64,000 nucleotides of DNA from Escherichia phage ukendt. Both the position numbers and the translations under genes were made by a program. The notes under the pieces were generated by a model. It searched no databases and was not told where the DNA came from. It saw only the letters and a program-made list of their open reading frames with translations. This document shows, in pieces, positions 2,624 through 46,835 of the stretch (the stretch's first letter is position 1; the number at the start of each line of letters is the position of its first letter). The stretch is taken from sequence record NC_052661.1. One strand, 5' to 3'.

Positions 2624-2624
2624 T

Positions 2625-2680: not shown

Positions 2681-2701
2681 TCACAAGAAGAGAGAAAAAT
2701 C

Positions 2702-2986: not shown

Positions 2987-2987
2987 T

Positions 2988-3049
2988 TTGACAGCACGCA
3001 AACAACGTAGTAAAGTTTACCACATAGGGCGGCGGAATGGTCCACCGCT
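2988..3049 (+). promoter_or_regulatory. promoter TTGACA-N17-TAAAGT plus imperfect GGCGGCGG-AATGGT-CCACCGC hairpin
   Basis: -35 2988-2993; conserved CATAGGGCGG box. Confidence 0.55.
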
Positions 3050-3071
3050 CACAACAGAAGAGAAACAAATC

Positions 3072-3242
3072 ATGATCCCGACTATGTTTTATGTATCGCG
3101 CAAAGGTCACAATATTTTTTGGTCTGAAGATTTAAATGAAGCCATGACGTTTGCCCGTGATCGTGTTGCTATCGGTGGCGTTAACATCACCGTAACCGAT
3201 GAAAATGGCATTGAATACTATAACGGCGACGATGAAGAGTAA
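3072..3242 (+). CDS. hypothetical small protein (56 aa)
   Basis: In-frame ATG after RBS agaagagaaacaaatc. Confidence 0.45.
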   Translation: MIPTMFYVSRKGHNIFWSEDLNEAMTFARDRVAIGGVNITVTDENGIEYYNGDDEE

Positions 3243-24565: not shown

Positions 24566-25366
24566 TTATTTGTTTAAATGGTCTTCAACCATTTTGATAA
24601 AGCCTTCATCACTGAAGACTGTTCCTGCTTTCTCTCGGTAGACAAGCACTCCACGTTCTTCGTAGAGAGTTTGTTCTACAAAATTCAAACCTGGGTTAAC
24701 TACAACCATCTTAACCCCAATATTCAGGGCAGGGAAGAGTTCCCAGTTGAAGTTGATTACTTGGTTAGAGCAGCCTACAACGATAACCATATCTTGTGAT
24801 GTTAGTTGATCCAGTTTGTGATACATGTCTGTGTAGAGCGGTGCATTCTCACCAAAAAACACCACATTAGGCTTCACATATTTGTAATCGTCTACATCAA
24901 TAGCTGCGTAACCCACATCTTTGATAATTTTGTTATCAACAACAACTTCTGGCAAGAAACCATGAACGTGCAATATTTCTTCTCTATCGATTCCAGCGCG
25001 TTCTAATAGATCGTCAACGTTAGTAGTGATGTTAATAATCCTTTCTGCACCGTATTTTTCGAACCATTCTCCAATCTGAAGATGTGCTGGATTCGGGTCA
25101 ACTTTCTCTAATTCCACGCGACGTTTATTGTAGAAGTCGTGAGTTTTACGGTAGAGGTTATATCCTTCCACATCTAAGCCACCCATAGCATCAGGAATAC
25201 CCTGTTCTTGCTGATAACCGTCACGGAAGTTGAAAATGTCACAGACTTCTGTCAAATCGTATTCATCCCATAATGCCTTTCCAGAATCTGTTTCTGTGCG
25301 AAATGTTTGGATTCCGCTGTCAGCACTTAGTCCCGCACCACTAATAAAATATACACGTCTTGGCAT
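24566..25366 (-). CDS. Sir2-like NAD-dependent deacylase/ADP-ribosyltransferase family protein
   Basis: sirtuin motifs GAGLSADSGIQTFR, ITTNVDDLLERAG, HVHG, KPNVVFFGE; no Cys4 zinc module. Confidence 0.65.
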   Translation of the reverse strand: MPRRVYFISGAGLSADSGIQTFRTETDSGKALWDEYDLTEVCDIFNFRDGYQQEQGIPDAMGGLDVEGYNLYRKTHDFYNKRRVELEKVDPNPAHLQIGEWFEKYGAERIINITTNVDDLLERAGIDREEILHVHGFLPEVVVDNKIIKDVGYAAIDVDDYKYVKPNVVFFGENAPLYTDMYHKLDQLTSQDMVIVVGCSNQVINFNWELFPALNIGVKMVVVNPGLNFVEQTLYEERGVLVYREKAGTVFSDEGFIKMVEDHLNK

Positions 25367-25896: not shown

Positions 25897-26550
25897 CTAT
25901 ACCAGACTTTGTAGGTATTTGTCAAGGGCTTCTTGATCACCTTGGCAAACATAGCAACGGAAGTCTTGAGACGAAGGTTGTTTATTTTCATCCCAATCCC
26001 AATAAACATTACCTTTATAACGTGAGCCAGGAAACTCAAAAGAGGCTGTATGTGTAATGTATCCTGGGCCACCAGTGAAATCACAGAATGAGAATTGAGG
26101 GTATGCCGCCTTTACTGCCTCAATAAACCAAGCTTTACGATCTAATGCTTCATTGATGCTATATGCATGTCTCTCCATTTCTTCCCAAGTTTTCCAGACA
26201 CTTCTCTCATCAGGAGAAAAGACAAGCCATTCTGGAAGGTAGAGAGTGTCATAGTAATCATCATATTCGATCTCGGAGGCGCACGAAGCTGACTCCTCCA
26301 GTTTTGAGTAATCAAAAGCCGAATATACCCACCAACCATCTTCCAGTAAGGCTTTGATAGGGACGAAGCCTTTATCAACATATTGATCGAATTGTTTGAC
26401 ACGGTGGCTTGTGCAGTCTTCAAACTCACATTCTAAACGATAGGCACCTTTTCGACGAGCCTCAAGACCGTGTGTACTGAAAATAACAACACTTCCTTCA
26501 CCATCGTTACGATCTACTTGATAAGCAACTACTGGTTTTGAATTTGACAT
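25897..26550 (-). CDS. hypothetical protein (217 aa)
   Basis: ORF track. Confidence 0.5.
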   Translation of the reverse strand: MSNSKPVVAYQVDRNDGEGSVVIFSTHGLEARRKGAYRLECEFEDCTSHRVKQFDQYVDKGFVPIKALLEDGWWVYSAFDYSKLEESASCASEIEYDDYYDTLYLPEWLVFSPDERSVWKTWEEMERHAYSINEALDRKAWFIEAVKAAYPQFSFCDFTGGPGYITHTASFEFPGSRYKGNVYWDWDENKQPSSQDFRCYVCQGDQEALDKYLQSLV

Positions 26551-27233
26551 TATTTCTCCTTATCTAGAAGATTGTTAGACAAAAACACGGCACGAGCAAA
26601 ACCACGTGCGGTTAGGGATCTAAGTTGTTTTGTTTTTGCACTAGCTCCACCTAAGCTTTTCCAACCCCAGAAGCAGCCTATATGATCTACTGGTTTCTTC
26701 ACTGGTTGAACAAAACCATTGCCGTGCCAAATACAAGTTTTCTTTGTATACCCATCACGGGTAGGCATTTTAGGATGAAAGCTCCCTTCCTCTTCAAACA
26801 AATACCCACCATACTCATAAGGATCAAAGTAAAAATCGGGTTTACGCCATAAGGTTGAAAGTTTACCTACTGGGTTCTCAATCATCCAAGGAACATTATA
26901 TTTGTTACCCAAAGCTTCCACTACACGAATATTAGCTAAAGCTTCATCCAATTCCTCTGTGCTACGTTCGTGTTTGCTACCACTACCTGCTAACATAGTG
27001 CAAGGTGGAAATCCAAAAATAATATCGGGTTTAGGTATCCCATGATCTTCAGGGTTGAATGTAGAATCTATCCAAGCATTCACATAGGTTATGTTTGGGT
27101 GCTCCATCCTAACCTCGTATTTACCGTGATCCCCTTCATCAGCGTTTACACAAAAACACTTGTGACCTGCTTCGGCATAACGTAACACCATGATCCCAGA
27201 TCCGTCAAACATAGACAAAACTGTTTTACTCAT
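26550..27233 (-). CDS. DNA cytosine-C5 methyltransferase-like protein (short, atypical)
   Basis: motif I FDGSG, motif IV GFPPCT (PCQ-like), motif VI ENPVG; start placed at MSKTV after RBS ggagggg. Confidence 0.4.
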   Translation of the reverse strand: MSKTVLSMFDGSGIMVLRYAEAGHKCFCVNADEGDHGKYEVRMEHPNITYVNAWIDSTFNPEDHGIPKPDIIFGFPPCTMLAGSGSKHERSTEELDEALANIRVVEALGNKYNVPWMIENPVGKLSTLWRKPDFYFDPYEYGGYLFEEEGSFHPKMPTRDGYTKKTCIWHGNGFVQPVKKPVDHIGCFWGWKSLGGASAKTKQLRSLTARGFARAVFLSNNLLDKEK

Positions 27234-27639
27234 TACCCCTCCATTCAAGACAAGCCATAACTTTACGCCAATCACTTTCTGTAAGAAAAATCTCGTTTGC
27301 TTTCTTCCACAAATCTAAATCGTGAAGGGTTGGAATACGATATGTTAGTTCACAGAATCTATGCTCTTCTTCTGTAATATAACCAAAATGCAGAGCCACA
27401 TCGTGAAACCAACACCAACCATGCATCTCTCGAACAACATGGTCATGCTGAGACATTGTTTTATGCCGTAAACCTAACCAACAAGGAACAGATACTTTAG
27501 TAGTCTTTAATCTGTGATCAACAATATTAGAGTATTCAATAATAGCTGTCAGTTTCAATCGTGCTTTTTCTAAATCCTCGTGGGTCACTTTGAAATAACT
27601 TTCTGAAAGATATCCACACATATTAATAACCTCCTTCAA
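27226..27639 (-). CDS. hypothetical protein (137 aa)
   Basis: ORF track. Confidence 0.45.
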   Translation of the reverse strand: MKEVINMCGYLSESYFKVTHEDLEKARLKLTAIIEYSNIVDHRLKTTKVSVPCWLGLRHKTMSQHDHVVREMHGWCWFHDVALHFGYITEEEHRFCELTYRIPTLHDLDLWKKANEIFLTESDWRKVMACLEWRGNE

Positions 27640-28564
27640 AAGGCTTAACTACATGTTGATTAGCTTTAAAACGTTCAACATAGTCGTTTTCACCCATGTT
27701 TTCATATAGCTTAGTAACAACATAAAAGTTTTCCCAAGCATATTCCCTAAACCAACCACTAGTGATGGATGTGCAGACTTTAGATAAAGCCATTATAAAA
27801 CTTTGCTTAGGGGTTGGACCTCCGATCTCTCCACCGAAAGGAATTTGTGAACGTTCCAAAGCCAAAACACACGCTTCTTCATAAACACCTAACAGGCGCA
27901 CATGTTTTGGTTGAGCAAAAAACTTTTCTTTGCTGGTCATAACTTCACTTCCATCCTTCATATAAGATTTATATGCTGGAGCATCCATTACTGCGATTGC
28001 TTCATGAATAGAGTCATGATCATAAACATACGGAACCTCATCACCTTTAAAGAAGTCTTTACTTCTCACGTTTAAGTTTGGATGAGAGTAAGTGTATGTT
28101 TCTTTCTCACGCAACTCATAAATACTCTTAAGATTTTCTGGGATCTTTGCGCCTAGTGATCGCATGAAATGAATATCTTTCATAGTTTTAAAGAAGTGAG
28201 GACTATCCTTTTTAAAACGATGACTCATTTTAAGAAGGTAGAGCACATCTAAAGGAGCAACAACGTGTCCAGCGTAAGTTCGACGAATATCATCAGAGTC
28301 TTCACAATAACTAATCAAAGCTTCTGTGCTATCTCCTTGAGAAGCAATATCGTATTCCAAGTGTGCACCAGCTATCATTTTGACATGGCCCTTGTTCCCT
28401 TTACGCTCTACAAGTTCAACAAACTCATCTTGAGAGAACATTTTTGATAATTCTTCCCACTCTTGTTCTGTACAGAGATAATCTAAATCTACACAAGGGC
28501 GATACAAGTCTTTTCCCATGTCCATAGCATGAATTTGTAATGCACGGCTACCAATTAACACCAT
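27623..28564 (-). CDS. hypothetical protein with possible Pol-beta-type nucleotidyltransferase signature
   Basis: N-terminal IGSRAL...VDLDYL resembles the hG[GS]..Dh[DE]h minimal NTase motif. Confidence 0.35.
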   Translation of the reverse strand: MVLIGSRALQIHAMDMGKDLYRPCVDLDYLCTEQEWEELSKMFSQDEFVELVERKGNKGHVKMIAGAHLEYDIASQGDSTEALISYCEDSDDIRRTYAGHVVAPLDVLYLLKMSHRFKKDSPHFFKTMKDIHFMRSLGAKIPENLKSIYELREKETYTYSHPNLNVRSKDFFKGDEVPYVYDHDSIHEAIAVMDAPAYKSYMKDGSEVMTSKEKFFAQPKHVRLLGVYEEACVLALERSQIPFGGEIGGPTPKQSFIMALSKVCTSITSGWFREYAWENFYVVTKLYENMGENDYVERFKANQHVVKPFEGGY

Positions 28565-28624
28565 AATATTTCTCCTCTATTGGTTGATAGGTTAAGTTTA
28601 TCAAGCTTCCAGATTTCTGTCAAT

Positions 28625-28644
28625 AAAAAACCCGCCGAAGCGGG
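28625..28644 (-). terminator. rho-independent terminator CCCGC-CGAA-GCGGG
   Basis: stem-loop followed by T6 in minus sense. Confidence 0.6.
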
Positions 28645-28654
28645 TTATTATTTA

Positions 28655-28927
28655 CTAACACATTGAGGAAGAAGAGATCCAAACACCTCTTGTGGTTAAA
28701 CCATTTTCATCCAACTCTACACCATAATCTTCACAAATGAAATCAATATAGTGATCTGCGGCTGGCGTTCCTGTAGGGTAATAAGTTTCTCCGTTACCGT
28801 AGTCACCTATCCAAGCTTGTTCCTGAAACTGTTCACAAAGTTCTTCAATCTCCTTACGAAACTTTCTTTGTGCTTGTTCCATCTCTTTAACTTTCTTTTT
28901 TATCAGCAGTTCGCCTTCAGACTCCAC
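28655..28927 (-). CDS. hypothetical small acidic protein, C-terminal W-x-SSS-x-C
   Basis: ORF track; C-terminus GVWISSSSMC paralogous to 28937 and 29442. Confidence 0.5.
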   Translation of the reverse strand: MESEGELLIKKKVKEMEQAQRKFRKEIEELCEQFQEQAWIGDYGNGETYYPTGTPAADHYIDFICEDYGVELDENGLTTRGVWISSSSMC

Positions 28928-28936
28928 AATCTCTCC

Positions 28937-29197
28937 TTAACAGCTACTACTGTGCCAAACGCCTTGAGAATTAACGACGAAACCATCATCACCTTCACCA
29001 TAACAAGAAGAGGATTGCCAATCTTCAAAACAGATTGCGTCATTTTCTAAACTAAGACCAAAACCAGCATCTTCAGCTTCTTTTGTAAGTTCGTCCACTA
29101 AAGCCATAATAGCTTGGGCTTTTTCAGTTAATTCTTCAACATTACGATCACTCATTAGTATTTCTCCTCTGGTTGGAAAACTGAACGACAAGCCCAC
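28937..29197 (-). CDS. hypothetical small acidic protein, C-terminal GVWHSSSC
   Basis: ORF track; paralog of 28655. Confidence 0.5.
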   Translation of the reverse strand: MGLSFSFPTRGEILMSDRNVEELTEKAQAIMALVDELTKEAEDAGFGLSLENDAICFEDWQSSSCYGEGDDGFVVNSQGVWHSSSC

Positions 29198-29469
29198 ATA
29201 CTAGCTTCTTTTAAATGTTTAATAGCACAACGGATTTGATCAATACGTTCGTATGCAAGATCTAATTCTTTTTCTGTGCCGTCAAAAGACCCATGATATG
29301 CTTCACAATACTCTTCCTCTAAAGCTTTGAAGATTAAACCTAAACGCTCTTCTGCATCTTTAATAGCGTTAACCTTGCCAATCTTATCGTCAGTATGCGC
29401 CTTATAACCTTTGATATCTTCGATTCCCACTTTACCTCCTATTAACAACTTAAAGAAGATGGGTGCCAA
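29155..29469 (-). CDS. hypothetical protein (104 aa)
   Basis: ORF track. Confidence 0.45.
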   Translation of the reverse strand: MAPIFFKLLIGGKVGIEDIKGYKAHTDDKIGKVNAIKDAEERLGLIFKALEEEYCEAYHGSFDGTEKELDLAYERIDQIRCAIKHLKEASMWACRSVFQPEEKY

Positions 29470-29639
29470 TTTGTTCCAGTATTCTCATTTTCATCTTCTG
29501 GATCATAATAGCCACCCATCCCATATTCAGGGGAGAAACGGAAACCTTTACCAGTCTCATCTGCTAACTGCTCTGCTTCCGCTAAAGCCTCATAAGCTGC
29601 TTTTACGGCTTCTTCTACTGTTTTAAACTTGGTCGTCAT
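29442..29639 (-). CDS. hypothetical small acidic protein, C-terminal WHPSSLSC
   Basis: ORF track; third member of the SSC-tail family. Confidence 0.45.
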   Translation of the reverse strand: MTTKFKTVEEAVKAAYEALAEAEQLADETGKGFRFSPEYGMGGYYDPEDENENTGTNWHPSSLSC

Positions 29640-29913
29640 AAAATTTCTCCTCTCCTAAAGACATGTTGACATGAAATGCACGATATGTAAATTCGTTGTC
29701 CGTTGTGTTTGAATAAAACTCAAATTGAACAACACCGTCTTGAGAAGACAGATACATGCCAATTTGAACTGTTCCTTCTGGTACCAGGTAAGCATACTCT
29801 GGACGTAGTGTTACATTGTAAAAATAAAGTTCCCCAACACCCATTTCATCCCAAGCTTCCCAAGCGGTAACGAAGTTACTTTCAAAACTTGTTACTGATC
29901 TGAACTCTGCCAT
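29623..29913 (-). CDS. hypothetical protein (96 aa)
   Basis: ORF track. Confidence 0.5.
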   Translation of the reverse strand: MAEFRSVTSFESNFVTAWEAWDEMGVGELYFYNVTLRPEYAYLVPEGTVQIGMYLSSQDGVVQFEFYSNTTDNEFTYRAFHVNMSLGEEKFYDDQV

Positions 29914-30404
29914 AAAACCTCCTCAATCTTGTAGTTTGACTCCATCTCCAACACATTTCCACGAACGTCTCTCCGAAGAAAGGCATAAGCTTTATTAGGT
30001 ATTGTAGACTCATATTTAACCATATCTGGCACAGCAAAAGATACTACTACTCCTGCTGGGCTTCTGTCAAGAGCCTTATTAATATTTCTAAGGATATCGT
30101 TAGCCAAGATTTCTGCCAATTCTCCAAGAACGGTTTCGGTTATATCTTTATATCCCATTAAGTATTTGTTGATATCTTTCATCTCTGTATTGTTCAGAGT
30201 ATAATCCAAAGGATAGAAATTCAAAGCGGAGTCACTTTTATGTGTCCACATGAAATGCACCCGATCCGAGCAGAATCGTAACCCTCTTTGAAGAATATCT
30301 TCTACAACAGGCAGAATTTCTTTTGTCACATCATTAACCATGTTGTAATCTAAGATTTCTGCCAAGTTTGTTCTTTGTTCACCACGTTTACGTTTAGGAA
30401 TCAC
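29892..30404 (-). CDS. hypothetical protein (170 aa)
   Basis: ORF track. Confidence 0.5.
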   Translation of the reverse strand: MIPKRKRGEQRTNLAEILDYNMVNDVTKEILPVVEDILQRGLRFCSDRVHFMWTHKSDSALNFYPLDYTLNNTEMKDINKYLMGYKDITETVLGELAEILANDILRNINKALDRSPAGVVVSFAVPDMVKYESTIPNKAYAFLRRDVRGNVLEMESNYKIEEVLWQSSDQ

Positions 30405-30975
30405 TTGTTATTGCCCTCATTACCAAAGGTCGTAGAAAATCGTAAATCTCTTGTTTTGTTTTCCCACGAATGTTTAAACAAGGAACATTATTGGCTTTAG
30501 CTATCTTCCAAGCCGTAGCTGTTCCGCCTTTTGCATCCCCATGTTTATCAGTATTAGCACAAGCCAACAAGAAACACGATGGAGCAGGATTCTCCAAATC
30601 TCTGCCTAACACCTGATGCACATTACGTTGGTGCAATTTTCTAGCACCCTGCTTAAGCTTTTCATAAGCTGGGTGAACATCTTTGATCCATTGCACAGAG
30701 ATAGCATAGTTCATTGTATCTGGTTTTGCAAGAACAATAACATCACCTGGAATCTGATTACCTTTGAAATTTTCCCAAGGAACATAAATCTCCTTGTTAG
30801 TAGGATTTTCAGACTCTTGGACACCTGTTTCAAAAGCAGAATCACTACCCTCTGCCTTCCCAGACCTTAATTTAAACCCAAGGTTTGAAAGCCATTTCCC
30901 TATGCCTACCATCAAAGCCCACTCTTCTTCAGATATATCTCTACTTCCAACTCCCGTATAGAACAGTTCTGCCAT
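30394..30975 (-). CDS. DprA/Smf-like (SLOG-type) Rossmann-fold protein
   Basis: GVGSRDIS ... SGKAEGSDSAFETG resembles the DprA GSR / SG.A.G.D signature; start at MAELFY after RBS gaggtga. Confidence 0.35.
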   Translation of the reverse strand: MAELFYTGVGSRDISEEEWALMVGIGKWLSNLGFKLRSGKAEGSDSAFETGVQESENPTNKEIYVPWENFKGNQIPGDVIVLAKPDTMNYAISVQWIKDVHPAYEKLKQGARKLHQRNVHQVLGRDLENPAPSCFLLACANTDKHGDAKGGTATAWKIAKANNVPCLNIRGKTKQEIYDFLRPLVMRAITSDS

Positions 30976-30982
30976 AATCACC

Positions 30983-31291
30983 TCAACAAGTAATTTCAAA
31001 AGGTGTATAGGGTTCCGTATTTCTCATGATCCAAGGACTGCTAGGATTGCTCGGATCATAAGGACCAAAAGGTTTTATGGTAGGTTGTGTTTCTTTCTTC
31101 TGAATCTCTTCAAAAATACGACGAAGTTCAGAATATTCTTGATCCACCATAAGATTCGGTGCATCCGATTCTACAGTTTGCAGGTTATCTTCCTTAAAAA
31201 CAATCTCACGAACAAGATTAACATCTTCTGTTTCTAAGATAACTTCTTTACGGATATTACCTACACTTTGAATAATTGTAATCTTATACAT
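30983..31291 (-). CDS. hypothetical protein (102 aa)
   Basis: ORF track. Confidence 0.5.
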   Translation of the reverse strand: MYKITIIQSVGNIRKEVILETEDVNLVREIVFKEDNLQTVESDAPNLMVDQEYSELRRIFEEIQKKETQPTIKPFGPYDPSNPSSPWIMRNTEPYTPFEITC

Positions 31292-32034
31292 TAATCCTCC
31301 TCAAGAGTTGAATAAAATTGAAGACCACCGTCCATATCGAAATAAGCAAATGTTAAGTTATTATTGAACACAGATCCAGTATCCATATAAACACGATTCG
31401 CATTGATAATAGGTGTTTTTACATAAGAGTGTCCATGGAACACATAGTCCACACCCATCACAACAGGAAGTTTCATTCCCTCTTTAGCACAGTCCACCAT
31501 ATCTCTGTCCCACATAAGTGCTTCAGCAAAACGGTTTTCCTGTGTTTTTGTCATCTTCAAAGTGTATTCTGGAATATCTGTTACAGGGAGATATTCCAAA
31601 GAAGATGGATACCCACCATGAATAAACGCAAGTTTCATGCCTCTGTAGTTAACAATGAGAACAACAGGTAAATCTTCTGTCATCATTGCTAAGGCTGTAG
31701 CTCCTTCTTCACCACATTCTTCAAGGACTGTATATCCTCCATTTTGATACCAACACTCGAAGTAGCTACGATCTCCTTCCAGCATACCTTTAATCATCAT
31801 GTCTTCATGATTTCCACGAATAGCGTAGCGATTGTGTTTACGAGTAAATTCTAAAACACAACGAAAGTTTTGCTTTCCACGGTCAGTAAGATCTCCTAAA
31901 GATACAACTACATCTGTATCTCGGATACCTAACTTTGCCTTTCCTTTTTCATACAAATTATAACAACCGTGTAGATCTCCAATTATAAAAAGATCTTGAT
32001 CGCTTTTAACAGTAATTTCTCTATGTATGATCAC
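31291..32034 (-). CDS. Ser/Thr protein phosphatase (calcineurin-like metallophosphatase)
   Basis: GDLHG, GDLTDRG, GNHE motifs. Confidence 0.8.
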   Translation of the reverse strand: MIIHREITVKSDQDLFIIGDLHGCYNLYEKGKAKLGIRDTDVVVSLGDLTDRGKQNFRCVLEFTRKHNRYAIRGNHEDMMIKGMLEGDRSYFECWYQNGGYTVLEECGEEGATALAMMTEDLPVVLIVNYRGMKLAFIHGGYPSSLEYLPVTDIPEYTLKMTKTQENRFAEALMWDRDMVDCAKEGMKLPVVMGVDYVFHGHSYVKTPIINANRVYMDTGSVFNNNLTFAYFDMDGGLQFYSTLEED

Positions 32035-32360
32035 TTATCCTCCTCAAAATCTAAGAAAATAAAAATATTCACCTTTCCTTCAATCTCTTGTTCTAAAACA
32101 AGATCGGCAAATTCTGCATAAGCTTTCTCTTCAACTTTTTCAATATGCTCTGCGGCATCTTTAAAAGGTGTATCCCCATCCACCTTTACTAATAAGAAAA
32201 GAGATCGCATTTCGACGCTTTTACTGTTACGAGGAAGGAAATCTACAGCTTCAACAATTCTCCAACCCAAATAGCCAGGAGTTTTATGAATCTCCCCTAA
32301 ATGCTTTTCTAAGATTTTACGACCCTCGTCGATAAGGGCTTGTTCTGTAGTAATTTCCAT
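32031..32360 (-). CDS. hypothetical protein (109 aa)
   Basis: ORF track. Confidence 0.5.
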   Translation of the reverse strand: MEITTEQALIDEGRKILEKHLGEIHKTPGYLGWRIVEAVDFLPRNSKSVEMRSLFLLVKVDGDTPFKDAAEHIEKVEEKAYAEFADLVLEQEIEGKVNIFIFLDFEEDK

Positions 32361-32370
32361 TCCTTCCTCC

Positions 32371-32961
32371 TCAAATTATTAACGAAACCGCATGACTAAA
32401 TTTTGGTTCAGATATAACCTCTGCTACAGTCACATATGTATCGTGCAGCCAAAAAGATTCTACTCTACAAACACAAATACCGTTGATAATGAAATCTACA
32501 CAGGCTTTATTATTTTCGCACACTTGTTGTCTATAAACAACCCCTAAAGAGTCATAAAGTGATCTCACTGTTGCTACCATTTCATCTGTTTCATCTTCGT
32601 GCGAAACAAAGAAAACGAATACAGACAAGTTGTTAGCGAAAGTACTGCTATTCTCTACTTCAACCGACTTACAAGGTAAAAAGGAGTAATATTTACCGTT
32701 AGGTATCAATTTCGCCTCAACCTGGTTAAGTATGCTTTGAGATGGTTTTGTTACATAAAAAAGATTTTCTGTTGGGTTTTCAACATTACTCCTTACTATG
32801 CAACGAGTGGGGTTCGAAGGATCAAAAACATGATCGAAATCGACACACACAGGTAAGTTAACAACTTTAAACTTTTTGCTAAGAATGCTTACTGCGGTAA
32901 AAATCAAACCAGCGTTTATTTTGCCAGTGAAAGTTGAACGCATAACTACTCCTCGGATCAT
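32371..32961 (-). CDS. hypothetical protein (196 aa)
   Basis: ORF track. Confidence 0.5.
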   Translation of the reverse strand: MIRGVVMRSTFTGKINAGLIFTAVSILSKKFKVVNLPVCVDFDHVFDPSNPTRCIVRSNVENPTENLFYVTKPSQSILNQVEAKLIPNGKYYSFLPCKSVEVENSSTFANNLSVFVFFVSHEDETDEMVATVRSLYDSLGVVYRQQVCENNKACVDFIINGICVCRVESFWLHDTYVTVAEVISEPKFSHAVSLII

Positions 32962-33152
32962 TCTACCAAAGAGAATTCCGCCTCTTCCAGGTAGATTACA
33001 GACCTTGTTGCATGATATTTAACGCTCCAGAAATTACCTTCGCGCCGTAAAAGTATCTCATTCACATCAAGATTGCTTAGAAAAACCATATAACTTAAAG
33101 CTTGTTGACGCGTTGAGAATTGTTTCTCTAAAAGTTCTTCTCCGCTCTGCAT
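32958..33152 (-). CDS. hypothetical protein (64 aa)
   Basis: ORF track. Confidence 0.45.
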   Translation of the reverse strand: MQSGEELLEKQFSTRQQALSYMVFLSNLDVNEILLRREGNFWSVKYHATRSVIYLEEAEFSLVE

Positions 33153-33198
33153 AATCCCTCCTTAAAAATACTCCCTCCGAGAAGGGAGTATAAGTATA

Positions 33199-33402
33199 TC
33201 ACGTAGTTGTTATGTTGTCTTCTTGGATACCAGAATCCACTTCTGCAAACATATCTTCTGCACTGTAATTATTTCCAGTCCAGCGTGATAGAAGGATAGC
33301 ACCAATCTCTTTTGCATGAGATTCAGACTCCGCATAAACGTTAGTCCCAGTGTCACCTTTTTTCTTTTCATGTGCATAAATGCAGTAATAATTGTAAGCC
33401 AT
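33199..33402 (-). CDS. hypothetical protein (67 aa)
   Basis: ORF track. Confidence 0.45.
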   Translation of the reverse strand: MAYNYYCIYAHEKKKGDTGTNVYAESESHAKEIGAILLSRWTGNNYSAEDMFAEVDSGIQEDNITTT

Positions 33403-33638
33403 TAGTCTTCCCAGTCATTGTCCTCGGTAGAGTGAACCAAAGCTCGCACGATGCCGCCATAGTCTACTGCTTGGTTTGCAGCATGTTCGGCATAAACTTC
33501 AATAGCTTTTTTGAAGAAAAGAGCAGTAGCTGCTTCAATATTATCCATTTCACCCTCTACATCAGTAGAAAGTGAAAGGTTGAGGCTTTCATCTACTTCA
33601 TCAAAATCAATAGCCACTGTCATAATTAGTTTACCCAT
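33402..33638 (-). CDS. hypothetical acidic protein (78 aa)
   Basis: ORF track. Confidence 0.45.
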   Translation of the reverse strand: MGKLIMTVAIDFDEVDESLNLSLSTDVEGEMDNIEAATALFFKKAIEVYAEHAANQAVDYGGIVRALVHSTEDNDWED

Positions 33639-33650
33639 AGTTCACACTCC

Positions 33651-34160
33651 TTAAACAAAATAAAATGGTTGAGAGAGGCCCAAACGATTCTTTGGGTCGT
33701 ATACATACCAAGCGTATGCTGTCTTATCTGTTCCACCTGCAACAAACGAAGGCCGTTCTGAAAGAACTATAAGGTTTGTCGGTGGATTCTTTTGATGGAA
33801 CTCTCGTCGTTTCTTTGACTCCAAGAAGCCCAACCGAAGAAGATAAATACAAACATCCGCCTCTTTTAAGCTCTTTTCCAAGAACTCCATTGCTAACTTA
33901 AATGGAGGGTTTGTGATTATAATGTCGGGACGATTTTCCCACTCGTGACTAAAATAATCCTTACCTTCTTCAAGTTCACAATATTCTGAACCTTCAGGAA
34001 AATGGCGATAAATCGCTTCAGCTTCACCTCTGCAAGGTTCTGCAAAAACCCAACCTTCTTCCTTTAGATTTTTGAAATCTATAACACTAAACAAACTATT
34101 GATTGCTTTTTGCGGTGTAGGATAATAATCGCTCGTTGGGCGATCATAATCTAATGCCAT
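33651..34160 (-). CDS. putative N6-adenine methyltransferase (NPPF motif)
   Basis: DIIITNPPF catalytic motif IV; small (169 aa). Confidence 0.55.
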   Translation of the reverse strand: MALDYDRPTSDYYPTPQKAINSLFSVIDFKNLKEEGWVFAEPCRGEAEAIYRHFPEGSEYCELEEGKDYFSHEWENRPDIIITNPPFKLAMEFLEKSLKEADVCIYLLRLGFLESKKRREFHQKNPPTNLIVLSERPSFVAGGTDKTAYAWYVYDPKNRLGLSQPFYFV

Positions 34161-34578
34161 CTAAAATCTCCTCTTTTGTAATATTATCCAACTCTTTAAA
34201 AGATGAAATCTCGTTTAATAATCCTATTTGATCAGCCTCTAGAGGATAAGTGTTTTTATCTGTTTTTCTAGACAGAATATCCTCAACAAACTTATCAATA
34301 GCCAAAGAAGAATCATAAAATTTTAAAAGTTGGTAATCCATAGGAGATATTTTGTCATCTCTTAGAAATATTTCTAACATGTTTTCAGGAGTATCGTGGT
34401 TTAGTTTATGTTCACCAAAAATATTAACTTCGTAAACATCTTTGCCAAACCAACGTTTCTTCTTTTCAACAGTATAGGTTTTTGCCACCAGACCATCTAA
34501 ACAGTTTCTTGCCCTCTTACATGTTTGACGGTAAGAGTGGATAGCGCCTTCAACAAACTTAGCAGGAACTTGTAACAT
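34144..34578 (-). CDS. hypothetical protein (144 aa)
   Basis: ORF track. Confidence 0.5.
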   Translation of the reverse strand: MLQVPAKFVEGAIHSYRQTCKRARNCLDGLVAKTYTVEKKKRWFGKDVYEVNIFGEHKLNHDTPENMLEIFLRDDKISPMDYQLLKFYDSSLAIDKFVEDILSRKTDKNTYPLEADQIGLLNEISSFKELDNITKEEILDGIRL

Positions 34579-34602
34579 TATTAATCTCCTATGTTTAAGA
34601 AA

Positions 34603-34618
34603 TGCCCCCGAAGGGGCA
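34603..34618 (-). terminator. rho-independent terminator TGCCCC-CGAA-GGGGCA
   Basis: stem-loop followed by TTTCTT in minus sense, downstream of the HslV-like gene. Confidence 0.6.
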
Positions 34619-34623
34619 GTTTG

Positions 34624-35316
34624 TTAAATAGCGGTTCCTTCGAAATCCGCCACATTTACGAGATTAATATTTTCAGATTTAGAAGTCAAGTTGTTTTCTG
34701 CAACAGATTTTTCTTCAGTATCCGCCTCGTTACCTGCCACGTTACGAGGTTCTTCTTCACCGTAGGGATTACCGAATTTCAAAAGATTGATCAATTCTTC
34801 TTTGGAGAAGTTTTCTAAATCATCGTCTGTTAATTCAATAATCTCGTCTTGTTCTTCAACAAATGTTTCACCACCAGAAAAAGCATCTCGCTTTTTAGCT
34901 ACTTCCATAGCTTGTTCTGGTGTTGCCCCTGCGTCAAGAGCAGCTAAAGCAAAGTCTGACCCACTTCCTACTGCATAATATTCTTCATCAATCGGATATG
35001 CACGTGTTGGGTTGTTACCTTCGTGCAGGAAAATACGCCCGTCTGGATGAACAACAAGTGCAATAAACTCTTCATCTTCTTTATCTGGATCAGAGTGAAT
35101 CATCAAACCAGGGACAGCATCACGTGCTGCTTCGCACTGTAGATTTTGTTCAAACCATTGAAAGAAAGAAAGCACGGAGGTCAGACGACCAGCACCACCT
35201 ACAAGGTAATCTCCAATTTTTCGGACCTTTTTGAAATTAATAGAATCTACACGTCCACCAAAAGTTACCTTACCGTCACTCAAAATCTTATTTTTGGTTG
35301 CAATAATTGTCGTCAC
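34624..35316 (-). CDS. HslV-like Ntn-hydrolase peptidase with acidic C-terminal extension
   Basis: N-terminal MTTIIA (Thr nucleophile), KKVRK, GGAG, AVGSGSDFALAALDAG align in order with E. coli HslV as recalled. Confidence 0.65.
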   Translation of the reverse strand: MTTIIATKNKILSDGKVTFGGRVDSINFKKVRKIGDYLVGGAGRLTSVLSFFQWFEQNLQCEAARDAVPGLMIHSDPDKEDEEFIALVVHPDGRIFLHEGNNPTRAYPIDEEYYAVGSGSDFALAALDAGATPEQAMEVAKKRDAFSGGETFVEEQDEIIELTDDDLENFSKEELINLLKFGNPYGEEEPRNVAGNEADTEEKSVAENNLTSKSENINLVNVADFEGTAI

Positions 35317-37310: not shown

Positions 37311-37571
37311 TTACTCCGCAATTTGAGCCATGAGATCACGCAGTTCGGTAAAACCGCCTACGTATGTTACCTCCCCGTTCACTTCAGACAGAATTTGTGG
37401 AAATGTGCGTGGAGGAACTCCGGTAAGATCAACAACTGTTTTAGTCATTGATTCTAAATCGTAGTCTTGGTCAAGACTTAAATATTCAAACTGTTTATTG
37501 CGCATGGTTAATAGTTGTTTTGACATTTCGCAAAATTGACAGTTAGGTTTACCAAAAATTACAAATTCCAT
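37311..37571 (-). CDS. glutaredoxin/NrdH-like redoxin
   Basis: CQFC active-site motif in a small thioredoxin-fold protein adjacent to rml and nrd genes. Confidence 0.75.
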   Translation of the reverse strand: MEFVIFGKPNCQFCEMSKQLLTMRNKQFEYLSLDQDYDLESMTKTVVDLTGVPPRTFPQILSEVNGEVTYVGGFTELRDLMAQIAE

Positions 37572-38413
37572 TACCTCTCCTTATTAAGTAATACTGCTAA
37601 AGACCGTTCAATACCTTTATTTAAATCTGATTTTGTAAGATAGTGACTGGTTACTAATTGTGACTTCACCGGACGTGCTGCTGGAGCATTATAGGTTGAA
37701 GCTGATACCGCCGATATCTTAACAGGTTCTGGCATCTGTGTCAAGATCTTTTCCGCAAACTCCGCCCAAGAAATAAGATGGCTTCCTGCAAAATGGTAAG
37801 TCTTAACAGACCTTGACCAACCTGTTTTTAATACTTCAAAAATAGCTTCTGCTAAATCTGGAGCATATGTTGGACAAGAGAACTGATCAGCAACAATAAT
37901 AAAATCACGTTGTCCATCATTATAGCGAGACAACATGGTTTTTAGAAAGTTATTTCCAAATTCGCTATATACCGAGGCTGTTCGAATAATATATGCATTT
38001 GGGTTAACTCCTCGCACCATTTTTTCACCAAGTTCTTTCGTATACCCATAATTGTTTATTGGGTTAGGTGTAGTATCTTCAAAAATAGGATGAGAATAAT
38101 TAAAAATATAGTCTGTAGAAATATGCACAAAATCAATTTTAAGTTTACTGCACACTGCTGCAATGTTTGCAGGGCCGTAGGCATTAACAGCCAAAGCAGT
38201 AGCAAAATCATGTTCTGCTTTATCTACAGCCGTATAAGCAGCGCAATTAATAACACCATCTACATAATCTTCAATAATAGCGTTGCGCACGGCTTCAAAA
38301 TTTGTAATATCTACACGTTCTTTAGGATAAATTAAAGATACGTTTGAAGGAGCCACTTTACGTAAAGCTTGTCCCAGTTGTCCATTACCACCCAATACCA
38401 GATATGTTAGCAT
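37571..38413 (-). CDS. rmlD: dTDP-4-dehydrorhamnose reductase
   Basis: N-terminal GGNGQLG Rossmann motif, RmlD-like length, last gene of the rml operon. Confidence 0.8.
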   Translation of the reverse strand: MLTYLVLGGNGQLGQALRKVAPSNVSLIYPKERVDITNFEAVRNAIIEDYVDGVINCAAYTAVDKAEHDFATALAVNAYGPANIAAVCSKLKIDFVHISTDYIFNYSHPIFEDTTPNPINNYGYTKELGEKMVRGVNPNAYIIRTASVYSEFGNNFLKTMLSRYNDGQRDFIIVADQFSCPTYAPDLAEAIFEVLKTGWSRSVKTYHFAGSHLISWAEFAEKILTQMPEPVKISAVSASTYNAPAARPVKSQLVTSHYLTKSDLNKGIERSLAVLLNKER

Positions 38414-38973
38414 ACACCCTCACTACGTAGCTGTTGAAAAGACTTAGCCATTGCATCTTTTGTTGATAAGATAGGTTTAAAATCTTCGTCAAAAATCATA
38501 TCGAAGCCCCAATCAATCCCTATATCAGGATCATCCCAACGTAAACTTTGCTCGCTGGAAGGGTCGTATGGAGTTGTGCATTTGTATTCGAAGATAGCAT
38601 CCATACTCAAGACTATAAAGCCATGTGCCAAACCAGGTGGAAGCCAGAACTGTGTATGGTGTCGTGCACGAAGAACAACACCGTCCCAAGCACCGTAAGT
38701 TGGACTGTCTTTACGTAAGTCTACAGCGAAATCCAATACTTCACCACTTACACAACGAACAAGCTTGCCTTGTGGATTATTTGTTTGGAAGTGCATTCCT
38801 CGCAAAACACCGAAGTTTGATTTAGACATGTTATCTTGAACGAAAGTTTGTTTACCAATAATATCTTCGTATTTTTGTTCATTGTATGTTTCTAAAAAGA
38901 AACCACGATCATCTTTATAAACGTCTGGTTTGATAATTACCGCACCTTCGATTTTTGTTTTTTCTACTTTCAT
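38407..38973 (-). CDS. rmlC: dTDP-4-dehydrorhamnose 3,5-epimerase
   Basis: [10 protein letters not shown] and RGMHFQ motifs; start at MKVEK with ATGA overlap to rmlA stop. Confidence 0.85.
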
Positions 38974-39848
38974 TTTCTCTCCGCTAATTTGAGTAGGTAT
39001 TGCCCGTACTCTGTTTTCTTCAGTGAGTTTCCATGGTACACCAAAGTCTCTAAAGAAATCCACCCTTTTTTGAAAGCAATTTCTTCCAGGCACGCAATCT
39101 TCAATCCTTGGCAGTTCTCAATAGTCTGCACGAATTGACCAGCTTCCATCAGACTGGCGTGTGTTCCTGTGTCAAGCCAAGTAAATCCTCGTCCGAGAAC
39201 TTCTACTTGTAACTTCCTGTCTTCGAGGTAGCTGCGATTGATATCTGTGATCTCCAGTTCTCCACGCGAGGAAGGGGTTACTTCTAGTGCGCGTTGAACA
39301 ACAGAATTATCATAGAAATACAAACCTGTGACAGCATAATCTGATTTAGGATTTTCAGGTTTCTCTTCAATAGAAATAGCTTGACGATTACTCCCAAATT
39401 CAACCACGCCGAATCGTTCAGGATCTTTCACCAAATACCCAAAGATACAAGCTCCGCCCCAAACATCTACCATCTCACTGGCATTAATCAGTAGTTTACC
39501 AAAGCTTTGTCCGAAGAATAGGTTGTCACCTAAAATAAGAGCAACAGAGTCTTCTCCGATAAAATCTTTACCGATGATGAAAGCCTCCGCAAGACCTCGT
39601 GGCTCGGATTGGATTGCGTAAGTGAGTTTTATCCCAAACATAGACCCATCTCCGAGAAGATACTTAAAGTCTTCCTGATCGCCTGGTGTGGTGATGATTA
39701 AGATATCTTTAATGTCAGCCAACATCAATACCGATAAAGGGTAGTAGATCATGGGTTTGTCATACACAGGGAGCAATTGCTTGCTCACACTGCGTGTTAC
39801 CGGATGAAGGCGGGTTCCACTTCCTCCCGCCAAAATAATACCTTTCAT
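38970..39848 (-). CDS. rmlA: glucose-1-phosphate thymidylyltransferase
   Basis: [19 protein letters not shown]-terminal motif. Confidence 0.9.
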
Positions 39849-39856
39849 AACCCTCC

Positions 39857-40849
39857 TTAAATCTTCTCACTCCACCATTGAGGGTTGTTTAAGTACCATT
39901 CAATCGTTGAGTAGAGATCTTGTTCAAATGTAGAGTTTGCACTCCAACCCAGTTCAGACTCTATTTTAGAAGGATTGATTTCATAACGCAAGTCATGTCC
40001 TTTACGATCTTCAACAAAAGTTATCAAGTTGGAAGAAGGGTAGGTTCCTGCTTCTGGATGTACAGCATCCATGTAGTCACAAACCATATAGATGATCTCC
40101 ATATTGGTTTTGGGATTACGTGTTCCAATATTATACGTTTGACCTGGTTCTCCACCTGTTGCCACTTGAAGAATAGCTCGCGCATGATCCTCCACAAAAA
40201 GCCAGTCTCGCACCTGATCGCCTTTACCATACACTGGAATCTTTTTATTCGTCAAGATACTTGTGATGATTTTTGGGATCAGCTTTTCTGGATGTTGATA
40301 AGGTCCAAAGTTATTGGAGCAGTTGGTTATCACAACAGGTAAGTCGTAGGTACGGTGCCAAGCTTTCACAAGATGGTCAGATGCTGCCTTAGACGCACTG
40401 TACGGGCTTGAAGGGGCATAAGCTGTCTCTTCGGTAAAAGGAACGCCAGAGTCTGCCATATCGCCGTACACTTCGTCTGTGGAGACGTGTACGAACATCT
40501 TCAGTTTATTCTTTGGGAGGAGCCTTGCAGCTTCCAATAAATTGTATGTACCAATAATATTGGAGTCGATGAAAGCTCGTGGATTCTTGATAGAATTATC
40601 CACATGACTCTCTGCCGCTAAGTGAATGATGAAATCGGGATTGCACTCTACTACTAAACTTTTGACCTGGGCTTCGTTTGCCAAATCTGTTATACTTAGT
40701 TTAGCGTGAGTGATATCGCCTACATTCTTAATGTCTGCTGCATAGCTCATCTTATCAACGACAAAAACTTCGTTATTGGGATCTTGACAAAGAGAGCGCA
40801 CCACGGCGCTCCCAATAAAACCAAGACCACCTGTTACCAGATAGCGCAT
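39857..40849 (-). CDS. rmlB: dTDP-glucose 4,6-dehydratase
   Basis: [13 protein letters not shown] Rossmann motif and SDR catalytic region. Confidence 0.9.
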
Positions 40850-45836: not shown

Positions 45837-46835
45837 TCACCATTTAGTATGATTTGTTAAAAGTTGACGATGTTGAATCCAGCCTTTGAAATTGCCAGAC
45901 CAAAACTTACCATTACGATCTACATGGGTAATACCTGGTTCCCAAGAGTTAAAATCCCAAGGAGCATTGATAAACAAATCTTCAAAACAGTTCTCTCCAT
46001 ATTGTTCGCATGTTTCTTGAATTGGAGTGGCTTGATGTTCAAACGGAGAAGCATGAACCTTGCGCCCAGTCAGCAAGCGACCATAGATATCTAAAGCTTT
46101 ATCTTTAGTTGCATTTAAACGACGATAGCTAACCTGTGCACAACATGAAGCTGAAATAGCTTTGGCTTCTTCCAAAGTAAGCACAACAACTTCTCCAGAT
46201 TCATCTTGAACGTAGTATCCACCAAAAACAAAATGATCGTCACCTTCTGTGCCAATATTATCGTAGAAATGGTCTACATAAGGTGTGTGCCATTGCCCTG
46301 GTTTCAGAACTTCTGGTGTAGATCCTTCATACTCTTTGTGCATCTCTTTAGCCAAAGCTTCGATAGTAGGATCGGCTTCTTTGTCATCACGTAGCCACCA
46401 GAAATTTTCATATTCTGTTGCTGTCAGAACTGTTTTAATTCGTTGGAAAGGTTCCAGAAGACGGTTTGCAACTTGTTTGTGGTACCCTGCCAAAGAGAAT
46501 TCTTCTGCAAAACGTGCTGCACTAAGCGCGGCAAGATCCCACCACTCTTGAGCAGTATAACCTGCATCAATAAGAGCGTCATGATCAACACCTTTATCCT
46601 GCATACCAGGTTGGTTAGCCCCAAAACGATAAGGACGAGCAGGTTGATTTCGCACCATTTCAATCAGTGTTTTAACAGGTATAGCACGGCTAGAAGCAGC
46701 ATTACGACTGAACAGGCGGTGAGTCATCAATTCTGAATGAATAATACGTGGATATTCTAGTTCAAAAGTTACAATCTCTTTTCCGTCTTCAGTGATGGAA
46801 TGCGCAATAATACTAGCCGAAATCTGTTTTGTCAT
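45837..46835 (-). CDS. thyX: flavin-dependent thymidylate synthase (ThyX family, long form)
   Basis: ThyX signature THRLFSRNAASSRAIP (RHR..S) and C-terminal HASPFEH; 332 aa. Confidence 0.8.
   Translation of the reverse strand: MTKQISASIIAHSITEDGKEIVTFELEYPRIIHSELMTHRLFSRNAASSRAIPVKTLIEMVRNQPARPYRFGANQPGMQDKGVDHDALIDAGYTAQEWWDLAALSAARFAEEFSLAGYHKQVANRLLEPFQRIKTVLTATEYENFWWLRDDKEADPTIEALAKEMHKEYEGSTPEVLKPGQWHTPYVDHFYDNIGTEGDDHFVFGGYYVQDESGEVVVLTLEEAKAISASCCAQVSYRRLNATKDKALDIYGRLLTGRKVHASPFEHQATPIQETCEQYGENCFEDLFINAPWDFNSWEPGITHVDRNGKFWSGNFKGWIQHRQLLTNHTKW

Follow-up and report, generated by a model that had tools for sequence, protein, structure and literature searches.

The DNA analysed is a 64,000-nucleotide stretch (the window) of Escherichia phage ukendt (NC_052661.1), a Phapecoctavirus of the phAPEC8 type that infects E. 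coli. Two short genes on its minus strand encode methyltransferase-like proteins: ORF A (26550..27233), a 227-aa minimal C5-cytosine methyltransferase-like protein of the phrog_757 family that GenBank entries name 'Dcm' or 'Dcm-like', and ORF B (33651..34160), a 169-aa minimal gamma-class (NPPF) amino-methyltransferase core of the phrog_799 family. A preliminary description of the window had singled out both genes, and their coordinates and motifs were found as it gave them. ORF A starts at the ATG at 27233, which is preceded by the Shine-Dalgarno sequence GGAGGGG, making a longer form from GTG-27275 unlikely; GAGGAG lies upstream of the start of ORF B. Profile matches to phrog_757 (ORF A, E 1.8e-84) and phrog_799 (ORF B, E 2.8e-59), together with hundreds to thousands of homologues, place the family assignments far beyond chance. 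The same minus-strand block carries rmlD/C/A/B (37571-40849), a ThyX-type gene (45837-46835) and an NT5C-like nucleotidase gene (46845-47453), as previously described.

Deposited genes whose products are 100% identical to the ORF A and ORF B proteins are already labelled 'Dcm' or 'DNA methyltransferase', and the recognition of two methyltransferase genes here is therefore routine. Neither protein passed a curated Pfam or NCBIfam model, and the literature searched yielded neither biochemical nor methylome data on the two families. The profile and structure classification that had been proposed as a check indicates that both are genuine methyltransferase-fold proteins, with ORF A modelled as C5-type and ORF B as (D/N)PP(F/Y) amino-type.

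ORF A is a minimal C5-type protein

The SAM-binding loop (motif I) of ORF A reads FDGSG (27195..27209, minus strand; residues 9-13), a DNMT3-like 'FDG' form that was aligned to FDGIATG of DNMT3A. All close relatives share D10, G11, S12 and G13, while the consensus across 81 sequences of the broader family is LFDxTG, with F9, D10 and G13 conserved. Residue 30, at the end of strand 2, is acidic or an amide. Motif IV, GFPPCT (26997..27014, minus strand; residues 74-79), contains the presumed catalytic Cys78, which is invariant in the 81 family sequences (32-69% identity) and aligns with C81 of HhaI, PPCQ of HaeIII and PCN of DNMT3A. This motif had been considered atypical. The Pro-Cys dipeptide of C5 enzymes is present as P-P-C, which is normal because M.HaeIII has GGPPCQ; what is unusual, and occurs family-wide, is the combination of Thr in place of Gln after the Cys and a variable residue before it, which in close relatives gives F-P-[D/P/S/Q]-C-T. 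Motif VI, ENPVG (26865..26879, minus strand; residues 119-123), aligns with the ENV of HhaI, Dcm and DNMT3A, relative to which E119-N120-P121-V122 represents a Pro insertion or substitution. Glu119 and P121 are invariant and N120 is at least 90% conserved across the 81 sequences.

Further departures from canonical C5 enzymes lie in the C-terminal half. A motif VIII-like segment, YTKKTCIW (26727..26750, minus strand), has Lys and Thr in place of the QxRxR arginines, which in canonical enzymes hold the flipped cytosine, and overlaps a strand predicted at residues 166-171 in the structure model. Y162, K164, T166 and W169 are invariant in the 81 sequences (as is G85, alongside C78, E119 and P121), and the family has no conserved Arg within Y162-T-K164-K-T166, although the register relative to R163/R165 is uncertain and the alignment with RARYFWGN of DNMT3A is approximate. 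The absence of a conventional target-recognition domain, suggested previously for ORF A, was borne out: only ∼30 residues (170-200; 26634..26726, minus strand) occupy the place of this domain, compared with ∼80-110 in HhaI, and this segment is of intermediate conservation (consensus fraction 0.43 versus 0.64-0.74 for the motifs). It is followed by a block, TKQLRSLTARGFARAV (26586..26633, minus strand), that is among the most conserved segments of the family (0.70) and is most like motif IX, canonically R-x-x-T-x-x-E-x-x-R. A greedy hhalign alignment of low confidence places this block on HhaI RKLHPRECARVM, and on that basis R-S-L-T-(P/A)-R-G-F-A-R may correspond to motif IX. No sequence like motif X, canonically G-N-x-V-P, follows, and the protein ends 11 residues further on.

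Two methods identified the class I Rossmann-type fold of C5 methyltransferases from a confident structure model of ORF A, with structural scores of 13.5 for DNA methyltransferases versus 9.8 for Dnmt2. The match to PF00145 fell below threshold (E 0.18, 11.6 bits versus a cut-off of 22), a search of NCBIfam returned no match, and only six of 81 relatives touched PF00145 at E values up to 1 (best E 0.0067). ORF A is not a truncated gene, since short length is the norm for its family, which comprises 1,486 phage records and is stand-alone and uniformly 202-261 aa across 1,820 cluster representatives (∼1,800 clusters at 50% identity). Homologues are located beside genes for primase/helicase, polymerase or ligase, within the nin region of lambdoid phages, or adjoining a second DNA methyltransferase gene in D6, mEp021, rV5-like phages and phages of the Gram-positive host Arthrobacter.

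PF00145 enzymes such as M.HhaI, M.HaeIII and E. coli Dcm are considerably longer (∼330-470 aa) and carry (G/F)PCQ, ENV and Q-x-R-x-R where ORF A has FPxCT, ENP and Y-T-K-K-T; ORF A also lacks their motif X and is an orphan with no restriction partner. The catalytic domain of DNMT3A/3B is closer in size (∼285 aa) but still has motif IX, motif X (GRSWSVPV) and the arginines of motif VIII; its likeness to ORF A, at 13-17% identity, may partly reflect shared small size. We regard it as a speculative and rather improbable proposal that the ORF A family, for which Pfam has no model, constitutes a distinct, very abundant phage and prophage clade of minimal DNMT3-like C5 methyltransferases that manage with neither a conventional recognition domain nor motif X nor the arginines of motif VIII. 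If this were true, the family might be one of the nearest prokaryotic or viral relatives of the catalytic domain of eukaryotic de novo methyltransferases, and its specificity could be relaxed or unusual, or its DNA recognition dependent on oligomerisation, as in DNMT3. The DNMT3-like character is a modest evolutionary lead.

ORF B is a minimal gamma-class amino-methyltransferase core

ORF B has the complete motif set of gamma-class enzymes (YxTP, EPxxG, E62, D68-Y69 and TNPPF) on a catalytic core fold with the motif order X-I-II-III-IV. The N-terminal Y-x-T-P, corresponding to motif X (34113..34127, minus strand), has an invariant T15, with Y13 and P16 at least 90% conserved. Motif I reads EPCRGEAEAIY (34008..34040, minus strand), in which E41, P42 and C43 do not vary. 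Compared with the family consensus, EPCRGxG-xIY, the clade of ORF B has an Ala in place of the second Gly and a one-residue insertion. The catalytic tetrapeptide lies within motif IV, DIIITNPPF (33900..33926, minus strand; residues 79-87), where I81, T83, N84, P85 and P86 are invariant across the family and position 87 is Phe or Tyr.

Among the curated models PF02384, PF07669 and PF13651, the best match of ORF B was to EcoRI_methylase, which was below the cut-off (E 0.02, 14.7 bits versus 26.4), and all of its relatives were likewise below Pfam thresholds. Their sub-threshold matches were mostly to DNA adenine methyltransferase families, namely EcoRI_methylase (31/37), Dam (17/37), Eco57I (12/37) and N6_Mtase (5/37), and these weak matches centre on motif IV. 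In structural comparisons, RNA m6A enzymes and DNA enzymes (MmeI 13.1, TaqI 12.9) were among the best matches, at equal scores. The fold alone thus fits either substrate, while genomic context and the weak Pfam matches lean towards DNA.

As had been proposed for ORF A, ORF B also lacks a recognition domain: nothing follows its catalytic core, whereas in M.TaqI, MmeI, M.BseCI, HsdM and CamA recognition is provided by a large C-terminal domain or by a separate specificity subunit. The family (542 phage records) is stand-alone and uniformly short in 247 matches, with zinc-ribbon or basic tails added in some relatives. Conservation of the flanking ORFs extends to phi92 only and is absent from rV5-like phages, Mydovirus, Vibrio and Listeria phages, which indicates that no partner subunit is encoded alongside. 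A precedent is provided by the phage Dam family (PF05869), ∼170-aa DNA N6-adenine methyltransferases without a separate recognition domain. Despite the weak matches to Dam noted above, only motif IV and the next helix align with PF05869 (hhalign Prob 19%, E 1e-3), and PF05869 members do not have the EPxxG motif I arrangement; the ORF B family is distinct from it.

Orphan DNA methylation as the probable role

On balance, these stand-alone genes of the early/middle block probably encode active SAM-dependent orphan methyltransferases, most likely directed at limited short sites in the phage's own DNA as it replicates. In ORF A, Cys78 would attack C6 of a flipped-out cytosine by the standard C5 mechanism while Glu119 keeps the base in place and protonates it, and transfer of the methyl group from SAM to C5 would yield 5-methylcytosine. 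The short segment (residues ∼170-200) may contact the DNA together with the basic C-terminal block, possibly aided by oligomerisation, as in DNMT3. In ORF B, the NPPF pocket would direct methylation to an exocyclic amino group, with adenine N6 the likeliest target, and loops of the catalytic core itself would provide recognition. Counting against ORF A as an active C5 methyltransferase, as judged from sequence, is its lack of the motif VIII arginines and of a recognisable motif X, both of which are important in HhaI-type enzymes.

Anti-restriction methylation, as raised in the preliminary description, or another site-specific methylation of DNA is still the likeliest role, and the probable benefit would be protection against particular restriction or DNA-sensing systems, or a regulatory mark, rather than blanket protection. 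Counting against the proposal, frequent 5mC would leave the phage open to McrBC in K-12 hosts, on which relatives such as nieznany were isolated. Any protection must be narrow, since exceptional sensitivity to restriction–modification (RM) is reported for rV5-like phages, which have homologues of both ORFs, and for phi92-like phages, which have a homologue of ORF B (PMC8594841), and the BASEL collection revealed no pattern linking methyltransferase genes to restriction resistance.

The remaining interest lies in the fact that both are large families of uniformly tiny methyltransferases without a recognition domain. They are present in therapy phage groups and model collections (T1-like, Webervirus, rV5-like and phAPEC8-like phages), and knowledge of the methylated sites would help to predict which restriction and DNA-sensing defences these phages escape. 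If active, an adenine methyltransferase of 169 aa or a cytosine methyltransferase of 227 aa would, in addition, offer a compact enzyme tool.

Alternative activities

One or both enzymes might instead methylate RNA and so tune host or phage translation, with ORF B modifying adenine in rRNA or tRNA in the manner of METTL5, Erm, KsgA or TrmN6, and ORF A modifying cytosine in tRNA in the manner of Dnmt2. METTL5 and PH1948-type proteins are minimal NPPF RNA m6A methyltransferases, METTL5 acting on rRNA with a TRMT112 partner (according to a PDB title), and such enzymes are among the best structural matches of ORF B. We nevertheless consider this unlikely, as DNA enzymes match ORF B with equal scores and, for ORF A, score well above Dnmt2, the neighbouring genes encode DNA replication proteins or other DNA methyltransferases, and the ORF B family, in contrast to METTL5, is found in DNA-metabolism contexts with weak matches that favour DNA adenine methyltransferases. 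Both families also occur in phages that would be expected to lack tRNA genes (∼50-kb T1-like phages and a 34-kb P2-like vibriophage).

It is more doubtful that ORF A and ORF B are catalytically dead or non-enzymatic, serving as DNA- or SAM-binding regulators or decoys, in the way that DNMT3L relates to DNMT3, or as SAM sinks. The missing recognition domains, the loss of motif VIII arginines and motif X in ORF A, the degenerate motif I in the clade of ORF B (GEAEA instead of GxG) and the missing link to restriction resistance would all be compatible with this. However, Cys78, Glu119 and NPP(F/Y) are invariant across very divergent members, and it is difficult to account for this unless the proteins are catalytic. 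In inactive paralogues, DNMT3L for example, the corresponding residues have been lost.

Transfer of a non-methyl group by ORF A, such as the carboxymethyl of host-made Cx-SAM, or another neomorphic activity, would explain its altered motifs IV and VIII and missing motif X, but is very improbable. The preliminary description had read the motif IV substitutions as a possible sign of non-canonical activity, for which Cx-SAM carboxymethylation is the one known precedent. Homologues occur in phages of Arthrobacter; Gram-positive hosts of this kind are not known to carry cmoA, which would make SAM a likelier donor than Cx-SAM. The phage DNA cytosine C5-carboxymethyltransferase SpCmoX (PDB 8YF3; PMC12783734) exemplifies enzymes with an SPPC motif, Arg350 at the HhaI N304 position, usually a phage CmoA and often a ligase. 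These diagnostics are not evident for ORF A, whose family motif is FPxC and in which the N304-equivalent position is not alignable, and the ORFs scanned in the window include no CmoA or ligase.

The preliminary description had also raised a joint pathway, in which both methyltransferases and the products of rmlABCD, thyX and the nucleotidase gene would cooperate in making a hypermodified and perhaps rhamnosylated base for the virion DNA; this is not supported and is highly improbable. In its favour are the shared strand and single 24-kb early/middle block, speculation that rhamnose might glycosylate hydroxymethylated bases in such phages (Olsen et al., bioRxiv 10.1101/2020.01.19.911818) and the ability of phage C5-methyltransferase homologues to place handles for hypermodification (CmoX; PMC12783734). 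Nevertheless, unrelated genes fill the 3.4-10 kb that separate the methyltransferase genes from the rml cluster, and the phyletic distributions are not coupled: just 171 phage records contain RmlA, compared with 1,486 for ORF A and 542 for ORF B, and ∼50-kb T1-like phages have ORF A homologues without any of rmlABCD, ThyX or the nucleotidase. No glycosyltransferase, hydroxymethylase or amide ligase was identified among the ORFs of at least 150 aa in the block. In addition, phi92-like phages, which share these rml genes, show exceptional sensitivity to RM, Stephanstirmvirinae are exceptionally sensitive to defences thought to target unmodified DNA, and the window itself displays strong avoidance of palindromic restriction sites.

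Two methyltransferase-like genes in an early gene block

More than 60 deposited Phapecoctavirus genomes match the region at 26000-35000 with 98-99% identity; this genus comprises the phAPEC8-like E. coli myoviruses of ~150 kb and belongs to the subfamily Stephanstirmvirinae. Genes lie on the minus strand from ~24 kb to ~60 kb, with the sign of the GC skew flipping at both points, and Pfam and PHROG annotation indicates that this block carries early and middle functions, including Sir2, PhoH, lysozyme, HslV-like peptidase, NinI-like phosphatase, rmlD/C/A/B, ribonucleotide reductase, a ThyX-type thymidylate synthase, an NT5C-like protein, nucleases and ligases. Directly past the strand switch near 60 kb (the other being near 24 kb), 10 tRNA genes (Met x2, Arg, Ser, Asn, Thr, Gly, Gln, Pro and Ile) are clustered on the plus strand at 61752-63672.

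Both methyltransferase-like genes of the preliminary description were located in this block with the motifs quoted for them. ORF A (26550-27233, minus strand, 227 aa) has an ATG start with GGAGGGG upstream, overlaps both neighbours through its stop and start codons, and features FDGSG (residues 9-13), GFPPCT (74-79) and ENPVG (119-123). ORF B (33651-34160, minus strand, 169 aa) is preceded by GAGGAG and features DIIITNPPF at residues 79-87. Each falls within a PHROG family labelled "DNA methyltransferase" (phrog_757, E 1.8e-84 for ORF A; phrog_799, E 2.8e-59 for ORF B). The two proteins are 100% identical to the products of genes in deposited phages, where they are named "Dcm" and "putative DNA methyltransferase"; because database entries with a methyltransferase annotation already exist for them, the finding as such is known and ordinary. 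More unusual is that each comes from a very large family that lacks a recognition domain and has no curated model. A literature search turned up no experimental study of either family, and a Salmonella methylome preprint deals with host enzymes only. Neither protein has a significant match in Pfam or NCBIfam, and classification was therefore based on PHROGs, structure prediction and fold searches.

ORF A is a minimal C5-methyltransferase-like protein

The ORF A family comprises 870 matches in a 90%-clustered database, all of ~215-245 aa, and, after clustering at 50% identity, 1,820 representatives, of which almost all have 200-260 aa. Its 1,486 phage records include T1-like Drexlerviridae, Klebsiella Webervirus, rV5-like phages, Krischvirus, PVP-SE1-like phages and D6, among others, to which a second search added Arthrobacter phages. 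Fusions of family members with P1 Dmt were looked for and not found. Across 81 members with 32-69% identity, C78, G85, E119, P121, P138, Y162, K164, T166, W169 and P177 are invariant, and the family consensus reads LFDxTG (motif I), FPPCTDLAxSGA (IV), ENPVG (VI), YxKxTCLWxGxGF (VIII-like) and TKxIRSxTPRGFAxAVF (C-terminal). The residue preceding the Cys is D, P, S or Q in the closest relatives. The PPC of motif IV had been considered atypical, but it is normal, since M.HaeIII carries GGPPCQ. M.HaeIII is also the sole sequence-level link of ORF A to a structure, a marginal match over motifs I and IV (E 0.08), and a PDB sequence search with the family profile returned nothing significant.

Profile comparison gave E-values of 0.07 with HhaI, 0.03 with E. 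coli Dcm and 2e-4 with DNMT3A, aligning C78 with the catalytic Cys and ENP with ENV. The M.HhaI and DNMT3A catalytic-domain queries were exact matches to PDB sequences; an HhaI-seeded homologue search was of little help, as all relatives it retrieved were at least 71% identical. Thus, the proposal that ORF A is a C5-methyltransferase holds for the fold and for the pair of signature catalytic residues, while several formal features of that family are missing. The ORF A family lacks the Q-x-R-x-R arginines typical of motif VIII, the conserved C-terminal block corresponds to motif IX at low confidence (hhalign against HhaI, DNMT3A, Dcm and a mixed profile was ambiguous), and nothing resembling motif X follows this block. 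The position of the recognition domain is occupied by ~30 residues (170-200), which are moderately conserved (consensus fraction 0.43 versus 0.64-0.74 for the motifs). By three independent measures, the DNMT3 catalytic domain is closer to the ORF A family than the bacterial type II enzymes are, a resemblance that is a lead rather than a result and may partly reflect shared small size. The description that fits ORF A best is that of a minimal, DNMT3-flavoured C5-methyltransferase-like enzyme whose activity is predicted.

ORF B has an amino-methyltransferase core

The ORF B family is represented by 247 database matches of ~156-227 aa and 542 phage records. It includes gp056 of phi92 (85% identity) and proteins of rV5-like, PVP-SE1/CR3-like, Aeromonas, Listeria, Staphylococcus and Streptococcus phages and of K139-like vibriophages; cyanophages and KVP40 give partial matches. 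The predicted model is confident (pLDDT 90) and matches gamma-class amino-methyltransferase cores, scoring highest with PH1948 (13.3), METTL5 (13.1), MmeI (13.1) and TaqI (12.9), followed by BseCI (12.3), HsdM (12.1), ErmC (12.0) and CamA (11.9). The motifs form a complete, conserved series: Y-x-T-P, E-P-C-(R/K)-G, E62, D68-Y69 and I-x-T-N-P-P-(F/Y), where motif I is GEAEA instead of GxG in the phAPEC8/phi92 clade.

The best curated match of ORF B was to EcoRI_methylase, which covered the NPPF region and was not significant (E 0.02), and a PDB sequence search with the family profile gave motif IV matches only. Sub-threshold Pfam matches of its relatives were to EcoRI_methylase (31/37), Dam (17), Eco57I (12), N6_Mtase (5) and generic MTS (14), a distribution that leans towards DNA adenine-methyltransferase families. 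Membership of the phage Dam family PF05869 (170 aa) was rejected, as only motif IV aligns by hhalign. Some relatives feature a zinc-ribbon-like Cys-rich insert directly after a conserved R-P-x-F, and others a C-terminal zinc ribbon (Pfam Zn_ribbon_3, E 3e-4) or a basic tail of ~55 residues. These elements, found in relatives P0158, P0171 and P0225, Vibrio phage VPUSM 8 orf8 (L006:2971-3588) and Klebsiella phage BIS47 (L005:2977-3657), may be add-on nucleic-acid-binding elements, and have no counterpart in ORF B itself.

Genomic context of the two genes

Target recognition domains can be supplied in trans, as with M.AquI and HsdS. The ORFs flanking ORF A (25897-26550 and 27226-27639) are absent beside its homologues in T1-like, rV5-like, PVP-SE1, mEp021 and D6 phages, and phi92 alone among the phage types compared keeps the genes that flank ORF B. 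A specificity subunit encoded alongside was therefore rejected, and both proteins are stand-alone enzymes because their flanking ORFs are not conserved beside homologues. The wider surroundings include a Sir2-family gene two genes downstream of ORF A (24566-25366, minus strand; PF02146, E 1e-20; phrog_2162, E 1e-96), a gene for a 313-aa DUF7277 and DUF7275 protein one gene upstream (27623-28564, minus strand; E 8e-14 and 2e-75), and an HslV/proteasome-like peptidase gene (34624-35316, minus strand; PF00227, E 1e-5; phrog_1040). The PHROG label "histidyl tRNA synthetase" for the protein encoded at 32371-32961 (minus strand) seems doubtful, because this protein has only 196 aa and no significant Pfam match.

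ORF A homologues adjoin primase/helicase, polymerase and ligase genes, lie in a lambdoid nin region, or have another DNA methyltransferase gene beside them. Proximity to an unrelated DNA adenine methyltransferase gene is frequent: a D12-class gene in phage D6 (L011:2471-4049), a PF05869 Dam in phage mEp021 (L010:946-3214), a "putative N6 adenine methyltransferase" of large size in rV5-like phages (JohannBauhin, L008:1-1201, 2465-3229) and paired "DNA methylase" genes in Arthrobacter phages. For ORF B, the K139-type homologue belongs to an early operon, immediately ahead of a replication gene. Phage orphan DNA methyltransferases usually reside in such neighbourhoods.

On balance, we favour a reading in which both proteins are SAM-dependent methyltransferases whose probable targets are a limited number of sites in phage DNA during replication. 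The folds, the conserved residues and the independence from neighbouring genes are shown by the analysis, and activity, substrate and role are inferred. ORF A would be a C5 methyltransferase with Cys78 as the nucleophile and Glu119 as the base-activating residue, and could target cytosines in a short context read by its tiny recognition segment and basic C-terminal block. ORF B would methylate an amino group, most likely adenine-N6, through its NPPF pocket. RNA as the substrate is unlikely, given that the weak Pfam matches of ORF B relatives lean towards DNA enzymes, although the predicted fold of ORF B does not by itself separate the two substrates. Non-catalytic roles rank below this, and the invariant C78 and E119 are the residues that a catalytic role for ORF A would employ. 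Use of a non-methyl cofactor by ORF A, such as the carboxymethyl donor Cx-SAM of phage CmoX, is highly improbable and was rejected, as the diagnostics described in PMC12783734 were not recognised in this case.

Rhamnose genes, restriction sensitivity and site avoidance

The rml, ThyX-like and nucleotidase-like genes that the preliminary description had considered together with the methyltransferases, in raising the possibility of anti-restriction methylation or a base-modification pathway, are present, but a connection of the methyltransferases with the rml and ThyX genes fails on several counts. It is very doubtful that a rhamnose/ThyX pathway builds a hypermodified DNA base together with both methyltransferases. 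Homologues of RmlA are limited to 171 phage records, which come essentially from Phapecoctavirus and the phi92-like genus, versus 1,486 and 542 for the methyltransferase families. Unrelated genes separate the methyltransferases from the rml cluster, and no glycosyltransferase, base hydroxymethylase or ligase was found among the large ORFs of the block. In the BASEL study, Vequintavirinae and phi92-like phages were "exceptionally susceptible" to type I, II and III restriction-modification, "despite ... a putative dTDP glycosylation machinery", and Drexlerviridae showed no pattern tying methyltransferase genes to restriction resistance (PMC8594841). Later work found Stephanstirmvirinae sensitive to defences thought to target unmodified DNA.

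The window itself avoids restriction sites. Observed/expected ratios are 0.36 for GGCC, 0.40 for CCGG, 0.40 for GTAC and 0.46 for CTAG, and some dozen GC-rich 6-bp palindromes do not occur at all, among them GGATCC, CTGCAG, CGATCG, CAGCTG, TCCGGA and GCATGC (6-11 expected each), while GATC (1.03) and CCWGG (0.96) are at expectation. Together with the preceding points, this argues against blanket or hyper-modification, and also against a non-specific adenine methylase. A footprint of 5mC deamination was rejected as a reading of the GGCC and CCGG depletion, which is inseparable from ordinary restriction-site avoidance.

The ThyX-type protein (45837-46835, minus strand) is unusually long (332 aa) and divergent, with a Pfam Thy1 match restricted to residues 22-174 (E 5e-8) and a PHROG "thymidylate synthase" match at 1e-107. 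Its gene adjoins that of the NT5C-like protein (46845-47453) and lies near an HNH endonuclease gene (47490-48065). The rml cluster (37571-40849, minus strand) provides a complete dTDP-L-rhamnose pathway (rmlD, rmlC, rmlA and rmlB), here carried by a lytic phage. Because rmlC as listed shares 124 nt with rmlA, and Pfam matches its product from residue 45 onwards, the true rmlC start is probably further downstream.
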